Of a stretch of 30,972 bases of DNA, positions 4,808 to 17,541 are shown piece by piece (positions within the stretch are counted from its first letter, which is position 1; every line of letters starts with the position of its first letter). The stretch is from a virus. Lineage: Duplodnaviria > Heunggongvirae > Uroviricota > Caudoviricetes. Both the position numbers and the translations under genes were made by a program. The stretch lies in the IMG/VR virus record IMGVR_UViG_2711768059_000015. The stretch is one strand, 5' to 3'. Below the pieces are notes generated by a model. The model was not told the origin of the DNA and ran no database searches. It saw only the letters and a list, made by a program, of their open reading frames with translations.

Positions 4808-5260
4808 TTACTCCTTTGCAGCATTGCTACCAGTCAATAACCACATCGGATCGCAGCCAAGAATATTTGCCAGTGGGATAAGCATACTGATGGTTGGTTC
4901 ATACTCTCCGCTCTCCCACTGGATGATGATTTCTTCATCAAGAGCGAGCAGCCTGGCGAGTTCGGCTGTTGTTAAGCCGCAGGCTTCGCGTTGGGTGCGA
5001 AGGTTAACCAGCCAGCTTTCAGGGAAGGATTGTTTTTGTTGTGCAGGAGAAGCAGCAGATAGAGCATATTCATGGATAAATTCCATTACCTCAATGCCCA
5101 GTTCCTTTGAGCGAGCACAATCCAGAAGATGGAATGTGCGTACAGCACTTAGCAAATTTGCAATATTTAATGCAAAGGAATCAAGTTCTAAGCCCTTAAG
5201 CGTAACACAGCCGCAGTTGATAAAATTAGTTGTTTCTGGAGTTGCTTTTAGTGTCTTCAT
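4808..5260 (-). CDS. Two-domain protein: unrecognised N-terminal domain plus C-terminal XRE-type helix-turn-helix
   Basis: 150 aa. C-terminal LRTQREACGLTTAELARLLALDEEIIIQWESGEYEPTISMLIPLANILGCDP matches the HTH_XRE pattern. First gene downstream of the candidate PL promoter; GGTGGA RBS. Confidence 0.7.
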   Translation of the reverse strand: MKTLKATPETTNFINCGCVTLKGLELDSFALNIANLLSAVRTFHLLDCARSKELGIEVMEFIHEYALSAASPAQQKQSFPESWLVNLRTQREACGLTTAELARLLALDEEIIIQWESGEYEPTISMLIPLANILGCDPMWLLTGSNAAKE

Positions 5261-5405: not shown

Positions 5406-6095
5406 CTAACCAAATCTGTTTATGTTGAATGGTACTGATGAGATCACTTTAGACTGGATATAAAGCAGAGCTAACCCCTCTTTTTCGATGCTCCATGGTT
5501 GATAATTGGGGTTATCAGATAACACCATGATTTTGCTTCCAATTTTTTGAAGCCTTTTCACGTAGCATTCTCCATCAAAACAAAATGCATAAATACCATC
5601 GCCATCAAAATAAGTTACTGTCTTATCAAGAAAAAGAAGGTCGCCAGGTGAGATTGTGGGAGCCATACTGTCTCCTCTGGCGTTACCTATTTCTATATTT
5701 TTGAATGCCCGATTTCCAACAAGACGTCGGGCATATTCAGGATCAAGTTCTATTGAGCGCACTACATCTATCAAGTCACCACGGACATGAGTTCCATCAC
5801 CGCAACTAAACTCAACATCAAGGACATTAAACACGACGCTATCTGTTCTTGTCTGGTGTTTCTCTTGCGAGGAAAAGGTTGGTGAGGAGTCTTCACCTAA
5901 GAACCAGGATTGTGGATAACCGCTAATCTCTGATAAATGCGCGAGCTTATCACTCCGTGGAAATGTTTTTCCTGTTGTCCAGTACTGCACTGATTGCGCA
6001 CTCACACCTAACTTGCGGGCCAGTTGAGCCTGAGTCCATCCTTTTGCTTTCAGCATCGCGGCTATTCGATTTTCCGTGTTTTTGACGTTCTTCAT
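5406..6095 (-). CDS. cI: CI-type prophage repressor (N-terminal XRE HTH, C-terminal S24 LexA-like peptidase domain)
   Basis: 229 aa. N-terminal HTH (GWTQAQLARKLGVSAQSVQYW). C-terminal S24 autocleavage domain with the catalytic Ser in GDSMAPT and a downstream Lys. Divergent from a Cro-like gene. Confidence 0.9.
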   Translation of the reverse strand: MKNVKNTENRIAAMLKAKGWTQAQLARKLGVSAQSVQYWTTGKTFPRSDKLAHLSEISGYPQSWFLGEDSSPTFSSQEKHQTRTDSVVFNVLDVEFSCGDGTHVRGDLIDVVRSIELDPEYARRLVGNRAFKNIEIGNARGDSMAPTISPGDLLFLDKTVTYFDGDGIYAFCFDGECYVKRLQKIGSKIMVLSDNPNYQPWSIEKEGLALLYIQSKVISSVPFNINRFG

Positions 6096-7685: not shown

Positions 7686-8537
7686 ATGATCCGCAACCAA
7701 CATATTGATTCTGCAATTTCGGGACGTTACACTGTTCCAGCACCTTATAAAGCGGGGGCCGGGCGTGGAAACCCGAAATTCAATATAGAGCACAACCGCG
7801 CTCATGCGGTTTTTTCGTGTCATGAGCATCGTTACGCCCAAATTATGGTGGGGCGTGCAGGGCCAACTTCGGTTGGGCCGGGTTCTATGTTGACCGGTAT
7901 TTCCACCCCTGTACGTCTCACCACCTATATGGTCGTGGAAAGCCTTGGTGGTGAGTTCATTGAATTCAACATAGGGGCTGTCACCATGACTACTCTCCCA
8001 ACCCTCTCTCAACCTGAAATCACGATTATCAATGGTCGTGTTGTCACCACATCTCTTGCAGTTTCTAATTACTTTACTAAACGGCATGAGCGGGTTTTAG
8101 ACAGAATTCGAAACCTCGAATGTTCCGCTGAATTTACTGAACACAATTTTGTGTTAAGTGAATACACCGACGCATCAGGCCGCAAACTTCCCTGCTACCA
8201 AATCACCCGCGACGGTTTTGCGTTTCTTGCCATGGGCTTCACTGGCAAACGTGCAGCCAGGTTCAAAGAGGCATACATCAACGCCTTTAACCAGATGGAG
8301 AAGAATTTATCTGGTGGTGACGCGGTTGATATGTCAGCTGTTGCACGAAACGCCAGAGGCGTATACCTGCATTTGCGTGAAATCCATCAAATCTGGAAAA
8401 GCCAGCTTTACCCCATGCTTAAGGCCGTTGAATCTCCGCTGGCGAGCAAGCTGTATGACCGTGTAGGAGATGCTGTTTTTGGCGCTGCACTTGTTGATTC
8501 CAGACTTAATGGTTCTGACAAGGAGGCGCACCCATGA
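7686..8537 (+). CDS. rha: Rha-family phage regulatory protein; start uncertain (ATG 7686 or ATG 7986)
   Basis: The Rha-like domain starts at the ATG at 7986 (MTTLPTLSQPEITIINGRVVTTSLAVSNYFTKRHERVLDRIRNL). The frame stays open upstream to 7686, but that 100-aa extension does not look like a typical domain. The track's 7665 start is a TTG. Confidence 0.6.
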   Translation: MIRNQHIDSAISGRYTVPAPYKAGAGRGNPKFNIEHNRAHAVFSCHEHRYAQIMVGRAGPTSVGPGSMLTGISTPVRLTTYMVVESLGGEFIEFNIGAVTMTTLPTLSQPEITIINGRVVTTSLAVSNYFTKRHERVLDRIRNLECSAEFTEHNFVLSEYTDASGRKLPCYQITRDGFAFLAMGFTGKRAARFKEAYINAFNQMEKNLSGGDAVDMSAVARNARGVYLHLREIHQIWKSQLYPMLKAVESPLASKLYDRVGDAVFGAALVDSRLNGSDKEAHP

Positions 8538-12035: not shown

Positions 12036-12278
12036 ATGACTTTTACCCCTGAACAATTACGCAAACAGGCGCAGGAAATGCTGCGACAGGCGGAACAACT
12101 GGAAAAATCAGGCGTAACAAAAGATGCCATTCGTCGGGATATGGTACCCGCGCTCAGAGAACTGATGCAGGCAAAACACCGCGCACAAAAAGCGGTGGAT
12201 GAGCTGGTGGATTGTGTGGCAGAGCTGGAAACAAAAGTTGGAAAATTTGAAAAATTGGTGCAGGGGGTACTGCGTTGA
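12036..12278 (+). CDS. Hypothetical coiled-coil protein (80 aa)
   Basis: ATG at 12036; predicted helical, charged sequence. No family recognised. Confidence 0.45.
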   Translation: MTFTPEQLRKQAQEMLRQAEQLEKSGVTKDAIRRDMVPALRELMQAKHRAQKAVDELVDCVAELETKVGKFEKLVQGVLR

Positions 12279-12649
12279 TGCGCTTAGAGTGTGTTTTACC
12301 TTACCCACCGACGGTGAACACCTACTGGCGTCGTCGTGGCAGCACATATTTTGTATCAAAAGCAGGGGAGCGTTATCGCCGGGATGTGGCGCTTATTGTT
12401 CGCCAGCAGCGACTGAAATTAAACCTGTCCGGAAGGCTGGCAATAAAAATTATTGCAGAGCCGCCGGATAAGCGCCGTCGTGACCTGGACAATATTCTGA
12501 AAGCACCACTGGATGCGCTGACGCATGCCGGACTACTTATAGACGACGAGCAGTTTGATGAAATCAATATTGTGCGCGGACTGCCTGTTCCTGGTGGGCG
12601 GTTGGGCGTGAAGATTTACGAAATTACAGGTGATAACGATGGTGCGTGA
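12278..12649 (+). CDS. rusA: RusA-family Holliday junction resolvase
   Basis: PPTVNTYW and RRRDLDN motifs typical of RusA. ATG at 12278 overlaps the previous stop. Confidence 0.85.
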
Positions 12650-13025
12650 TATTCAGCAGGTTATGGAGCGGTGGGGATCATGGGCTGCGAACAATCACGA
12701 AGATGTGTCATGGGCGTCAATCGCTGCTGGTTTTAAAGGATTAATCCCGCCGAAAGTGAAATCACGCCCTCAGTGTTCTGATGATGATGCAATGATAATT
12801 TGTGGCTGTATGGCCCGGTTGAACAAGAAAAATCAGGATTTGCACGATTTGTTGGTGGATTATTACGTAGGTGGAATGACTTTTATGGGGTTGGCACGAA
12901 AGCATGGGTGTTCGGATACCTGTATTGGCAAGCGCCTGCAGAAAGCGGAAGGGGTTATTGATGGCATGTTGATGATGCTTGATATCCGACTAGAGATGGA
13001 CAGATACGTAGAACGAATCATGTAG
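12639..13025 (+). CDS. Q: Late gene antiterminator Q-like protein
   Basis: About 128 aa, Cys-rich (CSDDD...ICGC...C..C). Canonical position before a promoter plus terminator pair and the late genes. ATG at 12639 with AGGTGA RBS. Confidence 0.65.
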
Positions 13026-13029
13026 GAGC

Positions 13030-13059
13030 TTGACCAGACACATTGTCCGGGGCTATATT
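13030..13059 (+). promoter_or_regulatory. Candidate late promoter PR' (Q utilisation region follows)
   Basis: TTGACC, 18-nt spacer, TATATT, immediately after Q. Downstream hairpin CGCCAG-N6-CTGGCG (13066-13083) could be part of a qut-like site. Confidence 0.45.
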
Positions 13060-13120
13060 CCTCACGCGCCAGCAAAATCTGGCGTCGGGATTGGCGTCCC
13101 GGATGAAAAAGGCGACAACA

Positions 13121-13140
13121 GACGCGCCAGCGTCTTTTTT
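13121..13140 (+). terminator. Rho-independent terminator (tR'-like) downstream of PR'
   Basis: GACGC-GCCA-GCGTC hairpin followed by TTTTTT. Predicts a short leader RNA of about 75 nt from PR'. Confidence 0.5.
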
Positions 13141-13298
13141 ATTGTCGTTTGCACTGTCACATCTCAATGGTGGGCTGTGTGGGGGCGGAGCGATCCGCGC
13201 CGGTTCCTTTTTCCCGGTTACGCCAACCCTGCACAGTTCACCACCATACTGATTGGCGTCAGCAGTGGTGATGATTCACATAGAAAAAGGATCATCCT

Positions 13299-13787
13299 AT
13301 GGCTATTCAAATCTCAGTTGAAACTCTTTCCCCGATCACCCATAACCAAATCCCTGTCATTACTACCGAGCTTTTGGCACAACTTTATGGCACCGAAACT
13401 AATAACATCAAAGTGAACTATACACGCAATGCCGAGCGTTTTGTTTGTGGGAAACACTACTTCAAATTGGAAGGGGCTGAGTTGCGGGAATTTAAGAACA
13501 AGGTTACTCAAAGTAACTTAGTTGCACCGCGTACAAAGCACCTCATCCTCTGGACAGAACGCGGAGCAGTCCGTCACGCCAAAATGCTGGAAACCGATCA
13601 GGCGTGGGAAGTGTTCGAAAAACTGGAAGACTGTTATTTCAGCCAAAAACAACCACCAGCAGCACAAAACACCCCAACCCAAAATGATGGATGCGCATTA
13701 CTGATCCACTTCGATAAACACGGTCAGGTCGACTTCACGGAAAAACTACCCGCCGATGCGATGGTATGCACTCTGGAACGGTTTTAA
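13299..13787 (+). CDS. ORF6N-domain protein (antirepressor N-terminal domain only)
   Basis: 162 aa. Paralogous to the N-terminus of the 6605-7459 protein (shared NY.RN.ERFV.GKH.FK and LILWTERGA motifs). AAAGGA RBS. Confidence 0.7.
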   Translation: MAIQISVETLSPITHNQIPVITTELLAQLYGTETNNIKVNYTRNAERFVCGKHYFKLEGAELREFKNKVTQSNLVAPRTKHLILWTERGAVRHAKMLETDQAWEVFEKLEDCYFSQKQPPAAQNTPTQNDGCALLIHFDKHGQVDFTEKLPADAMVCTLERF

Positions 13788-13862
13788 AAATTTTCCCCGA
13801 ACGCTTTACGATCGTAAAAAGTTGAATATCCTGTTAAGAGTGGTTACTACGCCAAACAGCTT

Positions 13863-13889
13863 AAACCCGCCACTGAGCGGGTTTTTTTA
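13863..13889 (+). terminator. Rho-independent terminator
   Basis: AACCCGC-CACTGA-GCGGGTT followed by a T7 run. Confidence 0.6.
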
Positions 13890-14010
13890 TGCCTGAAAAA
13901 CGGTACAGGACGTTAAACGCGCTGGTGGTTGCGAATACTGGTCTTTCGGCTTGTATTTTTGTAAATCGATATATACTTATCTTGTGACCAGTAATGTCAG
14001 GGCAATTGAT

Positions 14011-14754
14011 ATGAATGAAGCTTGTTCTGTTGTTTTTGTTCATTCCCCGTTTGTTGTGCTCTTTGAAGGAAAAGAGCTCTCTCTGGAAAGTGGTAGTGCA
14101 CTTCTTGTCAGGGGGGGAGCTGGATCGTTATTGCCCTTTTCGGAATGTTTTCGGCGAATAAGTCTCAGTGAATCGACAATTATCCGTTACCTGTTGTGTG
14201 GAGACGAAAAACAGGATGTAGTTTTAGTCCGGCAAATACCACGATATCTTTGCGTGAGTTTTCCCAAGGCAGAATTGATGGGCATCCTGATTGATTATCT
14301 TTGTGAGGAAAAGATTCATACGGACAATTTAGCGGAAATGCTTTCCTTTTCGTGTCTGGCGTTTTTCTCATCAGAGAAAATGTTTTCGTCGTTTCTGACC
14401 GCGTGTATTGGCAATATTAGTGACAGGCTTAGTGCATTGTTTCGTACGGACATTGCAGCAAACTGGACTCTGAGAGATGTGTCTTCGCGGTTATGTATCA
14501 GTGAAAGTTTGTTAAAAAAAAGACTGAAAGAAGAAGGCACCTGTTTCAGTGAGTTGTTGCTTACAGAGAGAATGAGAATGGCAGCAATGCTGTTGAATCA
14601 ATCTCGTTGCGCCATCAACAGAATCGCTGCTCAGTGTGGCTATAATTTTACATCTTATTTTATCAGCGTATTCAGGAGTTATTTTGGTGTTACACCGGCA
14701 GGTTACAGGATGGCTGCATTCAATGAGATGAGTTTAAGTGTTACTCAAGAATAA
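14011..14754 (+). CDS. AraC-family transcriptional regulator, AppY-like (cargo/moron gene)
   Basis: ATG at 14011. N-terminus MNEACSVVFV and C-terminal AraC HTH (SESLLKKRLKEEGTCFSELL...AAQCGYNFTSYFISVFRSYFGVTP) closely resemble the E. coli prophage-encoded regulator AppY as I recall it. Markedly AT-rich relative to its neighbours; flanked by terminators. Confidence 0.8.
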   Translation: MNEACSVVFVHSPFVVLFEGKELSLESGSALLVRGGAGSLLPFSECFRRISLSESTIIRYLLCGDEKQDVVLVRQIPRYLCVSFPKAELMGILIDYLCEEKIHTDNLAEMLSFSCLAFFSSEKMFSSFLTACIGNISDRLSALFRTDIAANWTLRDVSSRLCISESLLKKRLKEEGTCFSELLLTERMRMAAMLLNQSRCAINRIAAQCGYNFTSYFISVFRSYFGVTPAGYRMAAFNEMSLSVTQE

Positions 14755-14778
14755 TTGAATTTTGCACTCATTGAAAAC

Positions 14779-14804
14779 AGGCTCGCTGCGGCGGGCCTTT
14801 TTTA
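14779..14804 (+). terminator. Rho-independent terminator
   Basis: GC-rich hairpin (GGCTCGC...GCGGGCC) followed by TTTTTT. Confidence 0.5.
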
Positions 14805-14933
14805 TATCCGCGCCACGTCCGGCGCACATCACATCAGATAACACCACACAAAAGGTATCTGCGGGTGCCTTTGACGGGGTGTTGTTTTTTTACGGGCCGA
14901 CAGTGGCCCTTTTTTATTTACAGGAGAAAAAGT

Positions 14934-15326
14934 ATGTCTGAACCCTTGTCCGGTTCCGGTACGGCTGCGGCGCTCGGCGGGGCGACGGTATTCGGGCTGT
15001 TTACCGGAACGGATTTCGGGATTGTGTTTGGGGCGTTCGCTGGGGCGTTATTTGTGGCAACGATGCCGCAGGCGCTTTCAGCCTGGCGTGTGGCGGCGCA
15101 TTTTCTGGTGTCGTTTATCGTTGGCGTGCTGGGTGCGCATGTGCTGTCAGCCTGGATTGCATCAAAAACAGGTTATGACGGTACATCGGCGGATGCACTG
15201 TGTGCGGTGCTGGTGGCGGTGGTGTCGGTGAAGATTCTCTCGTTCATCCACCAGCAGGATATTGCATCGCTGGTGTCCGGCCTGTTCTCCCGCCTGCGGG
15301 GTGGAGGAGGCGGCAATGTTAAGTAA
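14934..15326 (+). CDS. Putative holin (multi-TM membrane protein)
   Basis: ATG at 14934 with AGGAGA RBS. Gly/Ala-rich hydrophobic helices with a charged C-terminus. First gene of a cassette ending in an endolysin. Confidence 0.6.
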   Translation: MSEPLSGSGTAAALGGATVFGLFTGTDFGIVFGAFAGALFVATMPQALSAWRVAAHFLVSFIVGVLGAHVLSAWIASKTGYDGTSADALCAVLVAVVSVKILSFIHQQDIASLVSGLFSRLRGGGGGNVK

Positions 15327-15591
15327 CCTTCCCGGATTGCTGAATGTGGCGTTATGCACGGTTATCGTGCTGACGCTCTTTTTTTATCGTCGTCGTGATT
15401 CCAGACATAAACCGCTGATGTCATGGCTGGCCTGGTTGCTGATGCTGCTGTATGCCTTTGCGCCCCTCAGCTATCTGTGTGGTCGCCCGTTAGCAACGGG
15501 CTGGCTGGAAGTGTTTTTTAACCTGCTGTTCTGCGTGCTGGTGATACGCGCACGCGGGAACGTCACAAAAATCTTTCCATTGTTGAGGTGA
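15316..15591 (+). CDS. Second small membrane protein of the lysis cassette (holin/antiholin-like)
   Basis: ATG at 15316, overlapping the holin 3' end. Two or three hydrophobic helices. Immediately precedes the endolysin. Confidence 0.5.
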   Translation: MLSNLPGLLNVALCTVIVLTLFFYRRRDSRHKPLMSWLAWLLMLLYAFAPLSYLCGRPLATGWLEVFFNLLFCVLVIRARGNVTKIFPLLR

Positions 15592-15593
15592 AT

Positions 15594-15971
15594 ATGTCGG
15601 GTAAATTCAGATTCAGTCGTCGCAGCGAAAAGAATCTGGAGGGCGTTAAACCACAGCTGGTTGCTGTCGTTCGCCGTGCGCTGGAGCTGACGGAGGTTGA
15701 TTTCGGTATTACGGAAGGGCTGCGCACGAAAGAACGCCAGAAACAGCTGGTCGCGGAAGGGAAAAGCCAGACCATGAACAGCCGCCACCTGACCGGTGAT
15801 GCGGTGGATGTTGTTGCCTGGGTTGGCAGCCAGGTGTCATGGGACTTGCCTCTGTATGAGAAAATAGCGCAGGCATTTAAGCAGGCTGCCGCAGAGCTGA
15901 ATACCCCCATCGAATGGGGCGGTGAGTGGCGGTCATTAAAGGATGGGCCTCACTTTCAGTTGAAACGATAA
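15594..15971 (+). CDS. Endolysin, peptidase M15-type (L-alanyl-D-glutamate peptidase-like)
   Basis: About 125 aa. His and Asp residues in the SRHLTGDAVDV segment and a C-terminal WGGEW motif fit small zinc peptidase endolysins. Confidence 0.75.
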   Translation: MSGKFRFSRRSEKNLEGVKPQLVAVVRRALELTEVDFGITEGLRTKERQKQLVAEGKSQTMNSRHLTGDAVDVVAWVGSQVSWDLPLYEKIAQAFKQAAAELNTPIEWGGEWRSLKDGPHFQLKR

Positions 15972-16517: not shown

Positions 16518-16559
16518 CCGACGGTGAGAGCAGAATATTTTTTAGAGGAGCGAAATTCT

Positions 16560-16910
16560 ATGCCATCACAAATCCCTCGTGCATGCCGTAAGCGAGGCTG
16601 TGCAGGCACAACGACGGACAGTTCGGGCTACTGCGATAAGCATCGCGGCGAAGGTTGGACACAACATCAACGCGGACTGAGCCGCCACCAGCGTGGCTAT
16701 GGCTCGAAATGGGATGCCATACGTGCGCGCATACTGAAGCGTGATAATCATTTGTGTCAGAACTGCCTGCGCAATGGGAGAGCCGTTGAAGCCAGAACTG
16801 TGGACCACATCATTCCGAAAGCGCATGGCGGTACGGATGCAGACGGTAATCTGCAGAGCCTGTGCTGGCCATGCCACAAGGAGAAAACAGCGCGTGAACG
16901 CATCAACTGA
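16560..16910 (+). CDS. HNH endonuclease (packaging-associated)
   Basis: ATG at 16560 with GAGGAG RBS. Cys-rich zinc-binding motifs and an HNH core (DHIIPKAHGG...N...LCWPCH). Directly upstream of the terminase small subunit, as in HK97-like cos phages. Confidence 0.85.
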   Translation: MPSQIPRACRKRGCAGTTTDSSGYCDKHRGEGWTQHQRGLSRHQRGYGSKWDAIRARILKRDNHLCQNCLRNGRAVEARTVDHIIPKAHGGTDADGNLQSLCWPCHKEKTARERIN

Positions 16911-17058
16911 TAATCGTTCTCATCTGTAAGGGAGGGGCGGGTCAAATCTCTGCAACCCTGGCTGCTCAGTACCGCCGCCTGACCCTTCCTCACATCGCCG
17001 CAGGTTCGAAAACTTTTTTTTGGAAATGTGAACAAACGATTGATAGGTAAGACCGATT

Positions 17059-17541
17059 ATGTCAGGACCTCCGAAAACCCCGCCACGCCTGCATTTGATA
17101 CGAGGCAACCCCTCAAAGCGTCCCGTTAAAGACCACAAAAAAACCGCTAAAAAGGATGAAAAAGGTCTTCCTAAAATTCCGCAGCATTTAGGGGCTCAGG
17201 GGAAGTACTGGTTCAGGCGAATGGCGGAAGAGCTGAATGCGGAAGGGATCATTTCTCAGCTTGATGCACGTGCGCTCGAGTTGCTGGTGGAAGCCTACAC
17301 CGAATATCGGCATCACTGCGAAACACTCGATGTTGAGGGGTATACTTACCGCACGGAAACGCAGAGCGGTGATGTACTGATTAAGGCGCACCCCGCGGCG
17401 GCAATGAAAGCGGATGCCTGGAAGCGGATCCGGGCAATGCTTGCAGAGTTTGGTATGTCACCGGCAAGCCGGGCTAAAGTAAATATCGCCGGACCGGATG
17501 ATGTTGATCCGCTGGCGGAGCTTTTAAAAGCGAGAGACTGA
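17059..17541 (+). CDS. terS: Terminase small subunit (P27-type)
   Basis: 160 aa with a basic N-terminus and a pattern typical of P27-family small terminase subunits. Immediately upstream of the large subunit. Confidence 0.8.
   Translation: MSGPPKTPPRLHLIRGNPSKRPVKDHKKTAKKDEKGLPKIPQHLGAQGKYWFRRMAEELNAEGIISQLDARALELLVEAYTEYRHHCETLDVEGYTYRTETQSGDVLIKAHPAAAMKADAWKRIRAMLAEFGMSPASRAKVNIAGPDDVDPLAELLKARD

Follow-up and report, generated by a model that had tools for sequence, protein, structure and literature searches.

We analysed a DNA stretch of 30,972 nucleotides from a virus of the Caudoviricetes (IMG/VR record IMGVR_UViG_2711768059_000015; "the window" below means this whole stretch), which is derived from an Escherichia coli lambdoid prophage that is apparently complete and phiP27-like. 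Between the late antiterminator gene Q and the holin genes lies the intact gene of an AraC/XylS regulator (14011-14754, + strand), and the homologies of its flanks indicate that this regulator occupies the type of cargo slot used by the Shiga toxin genes (stx). We consider it probable, at roughly 0.6, that the gene is a lysogenic-conversion moron in the late operon, the product of which would be an AraC activator feeding the acid-resistance network and would be boosted by Q on induction. Prophage AraC regulators (AppY, PatE, and PsrA/PsrB) are known to plug into the acid-resistance and virulence circuitry of E. coli. The present gene belongs to an uncharacterised lineage that about 1% of the complete E. 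coli genomes possess, with a concentration in strains from cattle and sheep and in pig strains of enterotoxigenic E. coli (ETEC) and oedema disease, and it lies in what is the stx2e slot of the sister phage phiP27.

The regulator gene and its protein

The protein of 247 aa corresponds to WP_001345622.1 in RefSeq and matched PHROG 1450 over its full length. Both Pfam models of the AraC-type helix-turn-helix (HTH) exceeded their gathering cutoffs in residues 158-233: HTH_18 (PF12833) with 51.6 bits (E 1.2e-13; cutoff 33.6) and HTH_AraC (PF00165) with 49.9 bits (E 3.2e-13; cutoff 26.6). The AraC/XylS family is marked by a DNA-binding domain of about 100 aa at the C-terminus that contains two HTH motifs; the protein has this domain, and its assignment to the family in a preliminary description of the window was borne out, for an intact protein. 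The ATG at 14011 was taken as the true start because all 16 aligned homologues begin at M-x-x-x-C-S-V; a likely ribosome-binding site (AGGG, 13999-14002, +) precedes it. The TTG at 13951, which is the start of the program-made open reading frame (ORF), and a 308-aa form of the protein (P0002) were rejected as over-extended on the basis of the same alignment.

BLASTP alignments with GadW, YdeO, AppY, ECs0287, and PsrA covered residues 1-232 (E 1e-36 to 1e-50), and those with GadX and EnvY began at about residue 107, with about 40% identity in the DNA-binding domain only. Over the full length, the identity was 42% to P0012, 39-41% to P0013-P0015, 39% to Sakai ECs0287 (E 7e-50), 36.5% to YdeO, 36% to GadW, 35% to the full-length form of PsrA (ECs1087; E 7e-39), and 30.5% to AppY (119 bits, E 4e-36). 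ECs0287 was taken as PatE (Z0321, OI-8/CP-933H) from its location in Sp1. The homology was colinear and extended through the N-terminal domain (about 140 aa), which places the protein in the GadW/YdeO/AppY/PatE/Psr subfamily. Its best NCBIfam match was the YdeO model NF007407 (146.9 bits, positions 2-228 of 253), far below the equivalog cutoff of 348 bits, so that the protein was not taken as YdeO; the NCBIfam search gave no match to a GadW model. Orthology with Psr was also rejected, as the identity to PsrA was 35% and PsrA and PsrB (Z2104) are 90% identical to each other. The preliminary description had called the protein AppY-like. The alignments support a common subfamily, but the likeness had been overstated: AppY is the weakest full-length match, GadW and ECs0287 scoring 149-154 bits, and it lies at another prophage position, so that AppY orthology was not accepted. 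Judged from these alignments, the regulator is nearer to PatE, GadW, YdeO, and PsrA than to AppY and is an orthologue of none of them.

Twenty-six columns were invariant in the 17 aligned sequences, among them C5, S6, and V7, and the recognition helices S164-E-S-L-x-K169 and S215-Y-F were invariant as well. K169 is the equivalent of K170 of AppY, and K170E served as the mutant control in the ChIP-seq and reporter assays of AppY (PMC10057817). The identity to the characterised members was 45-52% in the DNA-binding domain and 21-32% in the N-terminal domain. When the N-terminal domain was searched alone, 14 proteins were found at E of 1e-3 or lower among 1.84 billion representatives, and we regard the family as small and fast-diverging for this reason. 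An AlphaFold model based on an alignment of eight sequences had an overall pLDDT of 65 and was confident in the DNA-binding domain only, which was superposed on GadX (3mkl) at 1.0 Å with a TM score of 0.91; the N-terminal domain probably serves sensing or dimerisation. Against the 89.6% identical allele of pig ETEC strains, dN/dS was 0.31 at a dS of 0.23; the dN/dS of the neighbouring holin gene was 0.20. The gene is thus intact, and purifying selection acts on it. Taken together, these comparisons indicate that the regulator is a two-domain AraC/XylS activator of the GadW/YdeO/PatE/Psr/AppY subfamily, in which it represents an uncharacterised lineage of its own.

A survey of 5426 complete E. 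coli genomes gave about 65 with the gene (coverage of at least 80%). In 54 of these the same holin pair was linked to it, and its 90% cluster comprised 241 member sequences. Two groups of alleles were distinguished. Alleles with 95-100% identity came mostly from cattle, farm, and wildlife isolates and lay directly beside the holin gene; those with about 90% identity came from pig ETEC and O139 strains and had a tRNA-Gly gene between the regulator and the holin. A DNA search of deposited phage genomes returned none with the gene, only the flanks being matched, and the nearest tblastn match had 40% identity.

The cargo insert and the late promoter

Alignments to related loci delimited a low-GC insert of about 850 bp (13954-14805, +). 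The left boundary at 13954 was obtained from alignments to L009, L010, L012, and phiP27; on the right side, homology resumed at 14792 (SerU-LTIIb), 14802 (L008), or 14838 (phiP27). From these limits, the cargo extends from 13954 to about 14800 and consists of a single gene with its own terminator, placed first in the late operon. Its GC content (41.1%; ORF, 41.7%) was lower than that of the window (49.4%) and of the lysis genes (55.1%), and the AT-rich character noted in the preliminary description was confirmed. An insert of deviant GC content amid conserved phage genes, with boundaries drawn from six related loci, agrees with the definition of a moron.

The insert terminator, a hairpin followed by a T6 run (14779-14805, +), contained the strongest hairpin of the region (14779-14798, dG -17.8) and provides the terminator of its own that is expected of a moron. 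A second terminator-like hairpin (14894-14915, +; dG -10.8) was detected just upstream of the holin gene. The number of terminator-like sites across the region (6) was not significantly enriched over that in shuffled sequences (3.3 +/- 1.8). We nevertheless give the hairpins weight because they are conserved, the one to the left of the gene in six prophages and the insert terminator in L008. The terminators previously proposed on both sides of the gene were recovered as hairpins with T-runs at 13863 and 14779, but the left one belongs to the conserved leader of the late promoter PR' and not to the insert. In L008, which carries the pig ETEC allele, the insert terminator was duplicated (4891-4913 and 5661-5683, equivalent to 14780-14802 of the window) on the two sides of an insert of about 750 bp with a tRNA-Gly gene; the duplication suggests that terminators act as junctions for the stacking of cargo.

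PR' was assigned to 13805-13832 (+; TTTACG-N16-TATCCT) by homology to the late promoter of VT2-Sakai; in the promoter scan it matched the consensus at 8 of 12 positions. The segment 13805-13888 showed 81-85% identity to the late region of VT2-Sakai, to DLP12 upstream of essD, and to the matching region of phiP27, and the PR' segment was also found in L012. The counterpart in VT2-Sakai is annotated as the putative late promoter, the Q-utilisation site (qut), and the first possible rho-independent terminator. This location fits the Q of the window, since the latter is 79-80% identical in amino acid sequence to the Q of the VT2-Sakai/PA28/933W type and to QuuD of DLP12. In Sakai Sp5, the PR' start was mapped 22 nt past the Q stop codon (PMC7547250), and the predicted start of about 13839 was placed on this basis. 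The preliminary description had set the gene between a Q/PR'/tR' unit and the holin. The position between Q and holin stands, but the unit directly after Q proved to be an IsrK/C4-antirepressor module, as described later, and the putative PR' lies 780 bp beyond the promoter that follows Q. Such a corrected PR' map matters for the prediction of late-gene and toxin regulation from sequence.

Downstream of PR', an intrinsic-terminator hairpin with a T7 run (13863-13889, +; about +25 to +51) forms the first tR'-like element. The hairpin itself (13863-13884) had a dG of -12.4, was kept in position in six related prophages, and aligned with the first possible rho-independent terminator of VT2-Sakai. 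It is followed by a late-transcript leader (13890-13953, +) common to many lambdoid prophages. Over 13864-13953 (64-90 nt), the sequence was conserved at 93-94% downstream of Q genes from four or more unrelated families; L009 and L010 carry it at this identity behind unrelated Q genes, and it was also present in L007, L008, L012, and phiP27. The leader ends in ...GCTTG, beyond which the cargo differs by prophage, being a TrmB/TerB gene set, a methylase gene, or the AraC gene. For 13839-13953, the search for a conserved RNA structure yielded the terminator hairpin alone, with no compensatory changes or covariation. The leader may serve as a recombination anchor for the exchange of cargo, or it may be a processing or regulatory element. 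A short RNA initiated at PR' (13839-13889) would share homology with the 5' portion of the StxS precursor made by Stx phages; Rfam gave no match at gathering score in this interval.

The Q gene upstream of the regulator was variable, being of the Q21/933W type, a 273-aa PF03589 type, or DUF1133. The regulator gene was found 227 nt past unrelated Q genes in L007, L025, and L026; in L008 and L020, it lies behind Q genes of other types. The replication genes of the window recur in L025 and L026, but with the 273-aa Q, and this comparison suggests that the window acquired its Q-IsrK-ant' block by exchange.

The relation to stx was judged from three phages. In phiP27, the order is a methylase gene, tRNA genes, the A and B genes of stx2e, one small reverse ORF, and a holin pair 90% identical to that of the window; in VT2-Sakai, a PR' homologous to the present one (81%) precedes tRNA genes and stx2. 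The stx-equivalent position claimed earlier is thus upheld from both sides, by the holins and by PR'. By homology, the gene also has the placement of Q-antiterminated late cargo, lying on the + strand downstream of PR' and a terminator and upstream of the lysis genes. In the third phage, phiSTEC1575-Stx2k (L018, 3501-6335), a PsrA-like AraC gene, three tRNA genes, stx2k, and a gene for an IraM-like anti-adaptor were found densely stacked in the interval from Q to holin, as cargo directed at the host.

Proposed expression and alternative explanations

During lysogeny, a low level of the regulator would be produced from the weak promoter at 13951-13977 or by leakage of PR' transcription through the hairpin at 13863-13889. 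In the Sp5 lysogen, transcripts from the homologous and constitutively active PR' pass the first hairpin and stop at +258 (PMC7547250), and leakage from PR' into the present gene, the ATG of which is at about +173, is plausible for this reason. A leaked transcript would end at the strong insert terminator. The regulator would then bind AT-rich promoters of acid-fitness genes, namely gadE, gadY/gadW, hdeAB, and possibly hya/app, and this binding would alter acid resistance and the downstream traits controlled by GadE. We infer gadE and acid-resistance system 2 (AR2) as the targets because the characterised members of the subfamily act there, the DNA-reading residues are invariant, and P0014 adjoins hdeA; action on gadE/AR2 has been published for AppY, PatE, PsrA/PsrB, GadW, and YdeO (PMC10877973, PMC10057817). 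P0014 is a chromosomal YdeO-like protein (39% identity) encoded near an hdeA homologue in L023 (5001-7094), an arrangement that fits an ancestral tie between this subfamily and the genes of acid fitness.

On induction, Q-modified polymerase starting from PR' would read through the terminators at 13863, 14779, and 14894. As the gene lies between PR' and the holin gene on the late strand, this polymerase must transcribe the regulator to reach the lysis genes; among the proteins encoded by the late transcript, the regulator would come first, and it would be strongly over-expressed ahead of lysis. The Q-dependent boost expected in the preliminary description follows, as a prediction, from this geometry. 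Should the regulator change acid survival or colonisation, it would be a further phage cargo that tunes the gut fitness of livestock-associated E. coli.

Several points weigh against this reading. The identity to any characterised regulator is 35-39%, so that the targets are extrapolated, and WP_001345622 was not found in a literature search. The N-terminal half of the protein was poorly modelled (pLDDT below 50 at residues 71-133) and gives no pointer to a signal or ligand. The location of PR' was assigned by 81% homology over 83 nt rather than by a mapped start, and the hairpin at 13863-13889 has the look of a canonical terminator. As for expression in lysogeny, the promoter earlier assigned to the gene itself at about 13955-13990 was not recovered by the consensus scan at the usual threshold; the best internal candidate, TTGTAT-N15-TATACT at 13951-13977, is weak, with 8 of 12 consensus matches and a short spacer of 15 nt. 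The 89%-identical allele keeps the -10 hexamer, the spacing, and the TTG of this candidate, its -35 hexamer being TTGCAT.

A bolder proposal, which we advance tentatively and think more apt to be wrong than right, is that the regulator was captured in a constitutive PR' leader, at the position of the StxS precursor. Leakage from PR' through a weak proximal hairpin would then express the gene in lysogeny, the strong terminator at 14779-14805 would act as the effective tR' that silences the lysis genes, and the gene would represent a new livestock branch (ruminant and pig ETEC) with its own signal and a regulon distinct from those of Psr, PatE, and AppY. If this were true, one promoter would run two programmes, supplying a low level of a host-reprogramming factor in lysogeny and a burst of the factor together with lysis on induction.

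It is unlikely that the regulator is orthologous to AppY or has the same function, mainly activating the hya (hydrogenase) and appCBA (acid phosphatase/cytochrome bd-II) operons and stabilising RpoS. AppY is prophage-borne, belongs to the same subfamily, aligns over the full length, and shares the invariant recognition-helix residues, including the lysine that is K170 in AppY and K169 here, but it is the most distant of the full-length relatives, with an identity of 21% in the N-terminal domain, and does not lie in a Q-lysis interval. Moreover, the AppY regulon overlaps heavily with AR2/gadE, so that hya and app would not discriminate between the readings (PMC10057817).

We also doubt that the regulator chiefly serves the phage, in lysis timing, late transcription, or superinfection exclusion, with incidental effects on the host. 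Its gene is the first ORF past PR' and is tied to one type of lysis cassette (the 54 genomes mentioned above) while the upstream Q varies, as might be expected for such a role. However, near relatives that share the holin pair are without the gene and carry other cargo, such as stx2e in phiP27 and methylase/TerB genes in L010, which argues that the gene is dispensable for the lytic cycle; the low GC content and bounding terminators are traits of accessory cargo, and every characterised relative regulates host genes. That the gene has decayed into an inactive remnant, or is carried along wholly silenced and without function, the condition against which the preliminary description had wished to see its proposal checked, is very improbable despite the truncated alleles (P0006-P0011; 139-191 aa), the truncated adjacent antirepressor gene, and the want of a strong promoter, since the ORF is full-length and colinear with its relatives, the dN/dS value speaks for constraint, and an identical protein occurs behind different Q modules.

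Prophage setting and comparison with known systems

The region 13000-15400 of the window was 100% identical to NZ_CP076272.1 (strain E21845/O/A; locus L001). The prophage there adjoins mlrA/yehV and has a complete complement of integration, replication, lysis, head, and tail genes; its integrase gene lies directly beside mlrA (yehV) in L001 (1740-3748). In O157 strains, mlrA/yehV is the locus at which the Stx1 prophage is integrated. In the window, the gene for RusA (12275-12649, +) precedes that for the late antiterminator Q of the Q21/Q933W family (12630-13025, +; PF06530, E 5.6e-52; PHROG 79). The lysis cassette at 14934-15971 is of the phiP27 type, with 90% DNA identity to phiP27 L28-L30, and comprises, all on the + strand, the genes of holin 1 (14934-15326; PF16931), holin 2 (15316-15591; PF05449), and an M15 endolysin (15588-15971; PF13539). 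No tRNA genes were found in the window. Further downstream (16524-17541), an HNH endonuclease ORF is followed by the gene for a P27-family small terminase subunit, presumably resembling the HNH-assisted cos packaging layout of phiP27-like phages.

The interval between Q and PR' is filled by an IsrK/C4-antirepressor module of the immI-like type (13030-13787, +), identified by Rfam and Pfam together with promoter and terminator scans. It is headed by a promoter-like site (13030-13059, +; 10 of 12 consensus matches) and contains an IsrK-like Hfq-binding small RNA (sRNA; 13066-13140, +; Rfam isrK, 79.4 bits, cutoff 50) with a terminator (13120-13135, +), the a1/b1 target family (c4-a1b1; 13053-13105, +; 52.2 bits, cutoff 46.7), and a C4-like antisense RNA (13163-13248, +; 74 bits, cutoff 45). 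The three Rfam matches exceed their gathering scores and are followed by the ORF6N antirepressor gene (13299-13787, +; PF10543), which spans 163 of the 187 positions of PHROG 2379 and is recorded in RefSeq as a pseudogene without its C-terminus. The promoter and terminator in 13030-13140 had been considered as PR'/tR'. This assignment was rejected because of the IsrK/C4 matches, which make them those of IsrK, and because the same module is present in the nin region of Stx phages. That copy is 84% identical and distant from Q, which indicates that the module is self-contained. The promoter and terminator of IsrK stand at the head of an immI-type switch over the downstream antirepressor; the same layout, antQ-isrK-orf45-anrP, is carried by Gifsy-1 (PMC4825925).

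The window contains a second IsrK/C4 module at 7740-7928, which is colinear with the first at 75% identity and precedes a Rha-family gene. The coding sequence given for this gene in RefSeq begins at about 7777, in overlap with the two RNAs, and this start is probably too far upstream; an ATG is located near 7985. With two such modules, the prophage has two sRNA-gated switches of the antirepressor type.

Among the structural neighbours, Rns, CsvR, and ToxT, which are AraC virulence regulators of solved structure, were the best full-length matches in the PDB and have the same two-domain architecture. Rns was matched by sequence over residues 87-231 (E 2e-17) and by Foldseek over about 255 columns (E 1e-9). 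The identity to these proteins is about 20% with a TM score of 0.40, reflecting the low confidence of the N-terminal half of the model, and fatty-acid binding is not inferable from the likeness. The C-S-V motif at the N-terminus and the recognition helices of the regulator are also found in GadW and YdeO, but these two are core-genome genes in the EvgAS/GAD circuits, whereas the present regulator is a prophage gene.

In E. coli K-12, AppY of DLP12 has gadE, gadY, hya, and app among its direct targets (PMC10057817). Like the present regulator it is prophage-borne, and its Lys170 is conserved as K169; however, its gene lies after tfaX and the tail-fibre genes at the far end of DLP12 beside ompT. 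The PatE-like ECs0287 is the closest characterised relative by score, is likewise prophage-borne, and has the same length of 247 aa; near-identical copies were found in phages mEp332 and ev099. PatE activates gadE, gadBC, and hdeAB (PMC10877973). In Sp1, mEp332, and ev099, the PatE-like genes follow the tail-fibre genes and lie close to the integrase gene at the end of the prophage, whereas the regulator of the window is in the leader of the late operon. The subfamily accordingly occurs as cargo at two sites, after the tail-fibre genes (the PatE-like genes and AppY) and in the Q-lysis interval, where PsrA of Sp4, the PsrA-like gene of the Stx2k phage, and P0012 are also found.

PsrA (ECs1087/Z1789; Sakai Sp4/CP-933N) is a member of the same AraC subfamily in the same Q-to-lysis slot after a Q21-type Q, and the present gene resembles psrA in being carried by a lambdoid prophage at a site flanked by Q and by the lysis genes. 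PsrA and PsrB, which are secretion regulators encoded by prophages, activate gadE/yhiF and hdeA, by which acid resistance is increased and type III secretion is repressed (PMC10877973). The order in Sp4 is Q (ECs1084), ECs1085, ECs1086, psrA (ECs1087), and the tRNA genes ileZ-argN-argO; other cargo therefore separates Q from psrA and tRNA genes follow it, whereas the gene of the window comes directly after the PR' leader and directly before holins of the phiP27 type. The hosts differ as well, being mostly ruminant, pig, and ETEC isolates for the present gene and O157:H7 for Psr. Thus, the arrangement as such is already known, with PsrA in the same interval of Sp4 and with PsrB, PatE, and AppY as published acid-resistance regulators of prophages.

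The comparison with stx itself (stx2e in phiP27; stx2a in Sp5/VT2-Sakai) reveals the same slot and, by homology, the same regulatory logic, the cargo being a toxin there and a transcription factor here. One hairpin separates PR' from the gene in the window, and Sp5 has a further tR' at +258. Should the regulator change acid survival or colonisation, the slot would also exemplify a hot spot in which toxin and regulator genes are interchangeable.

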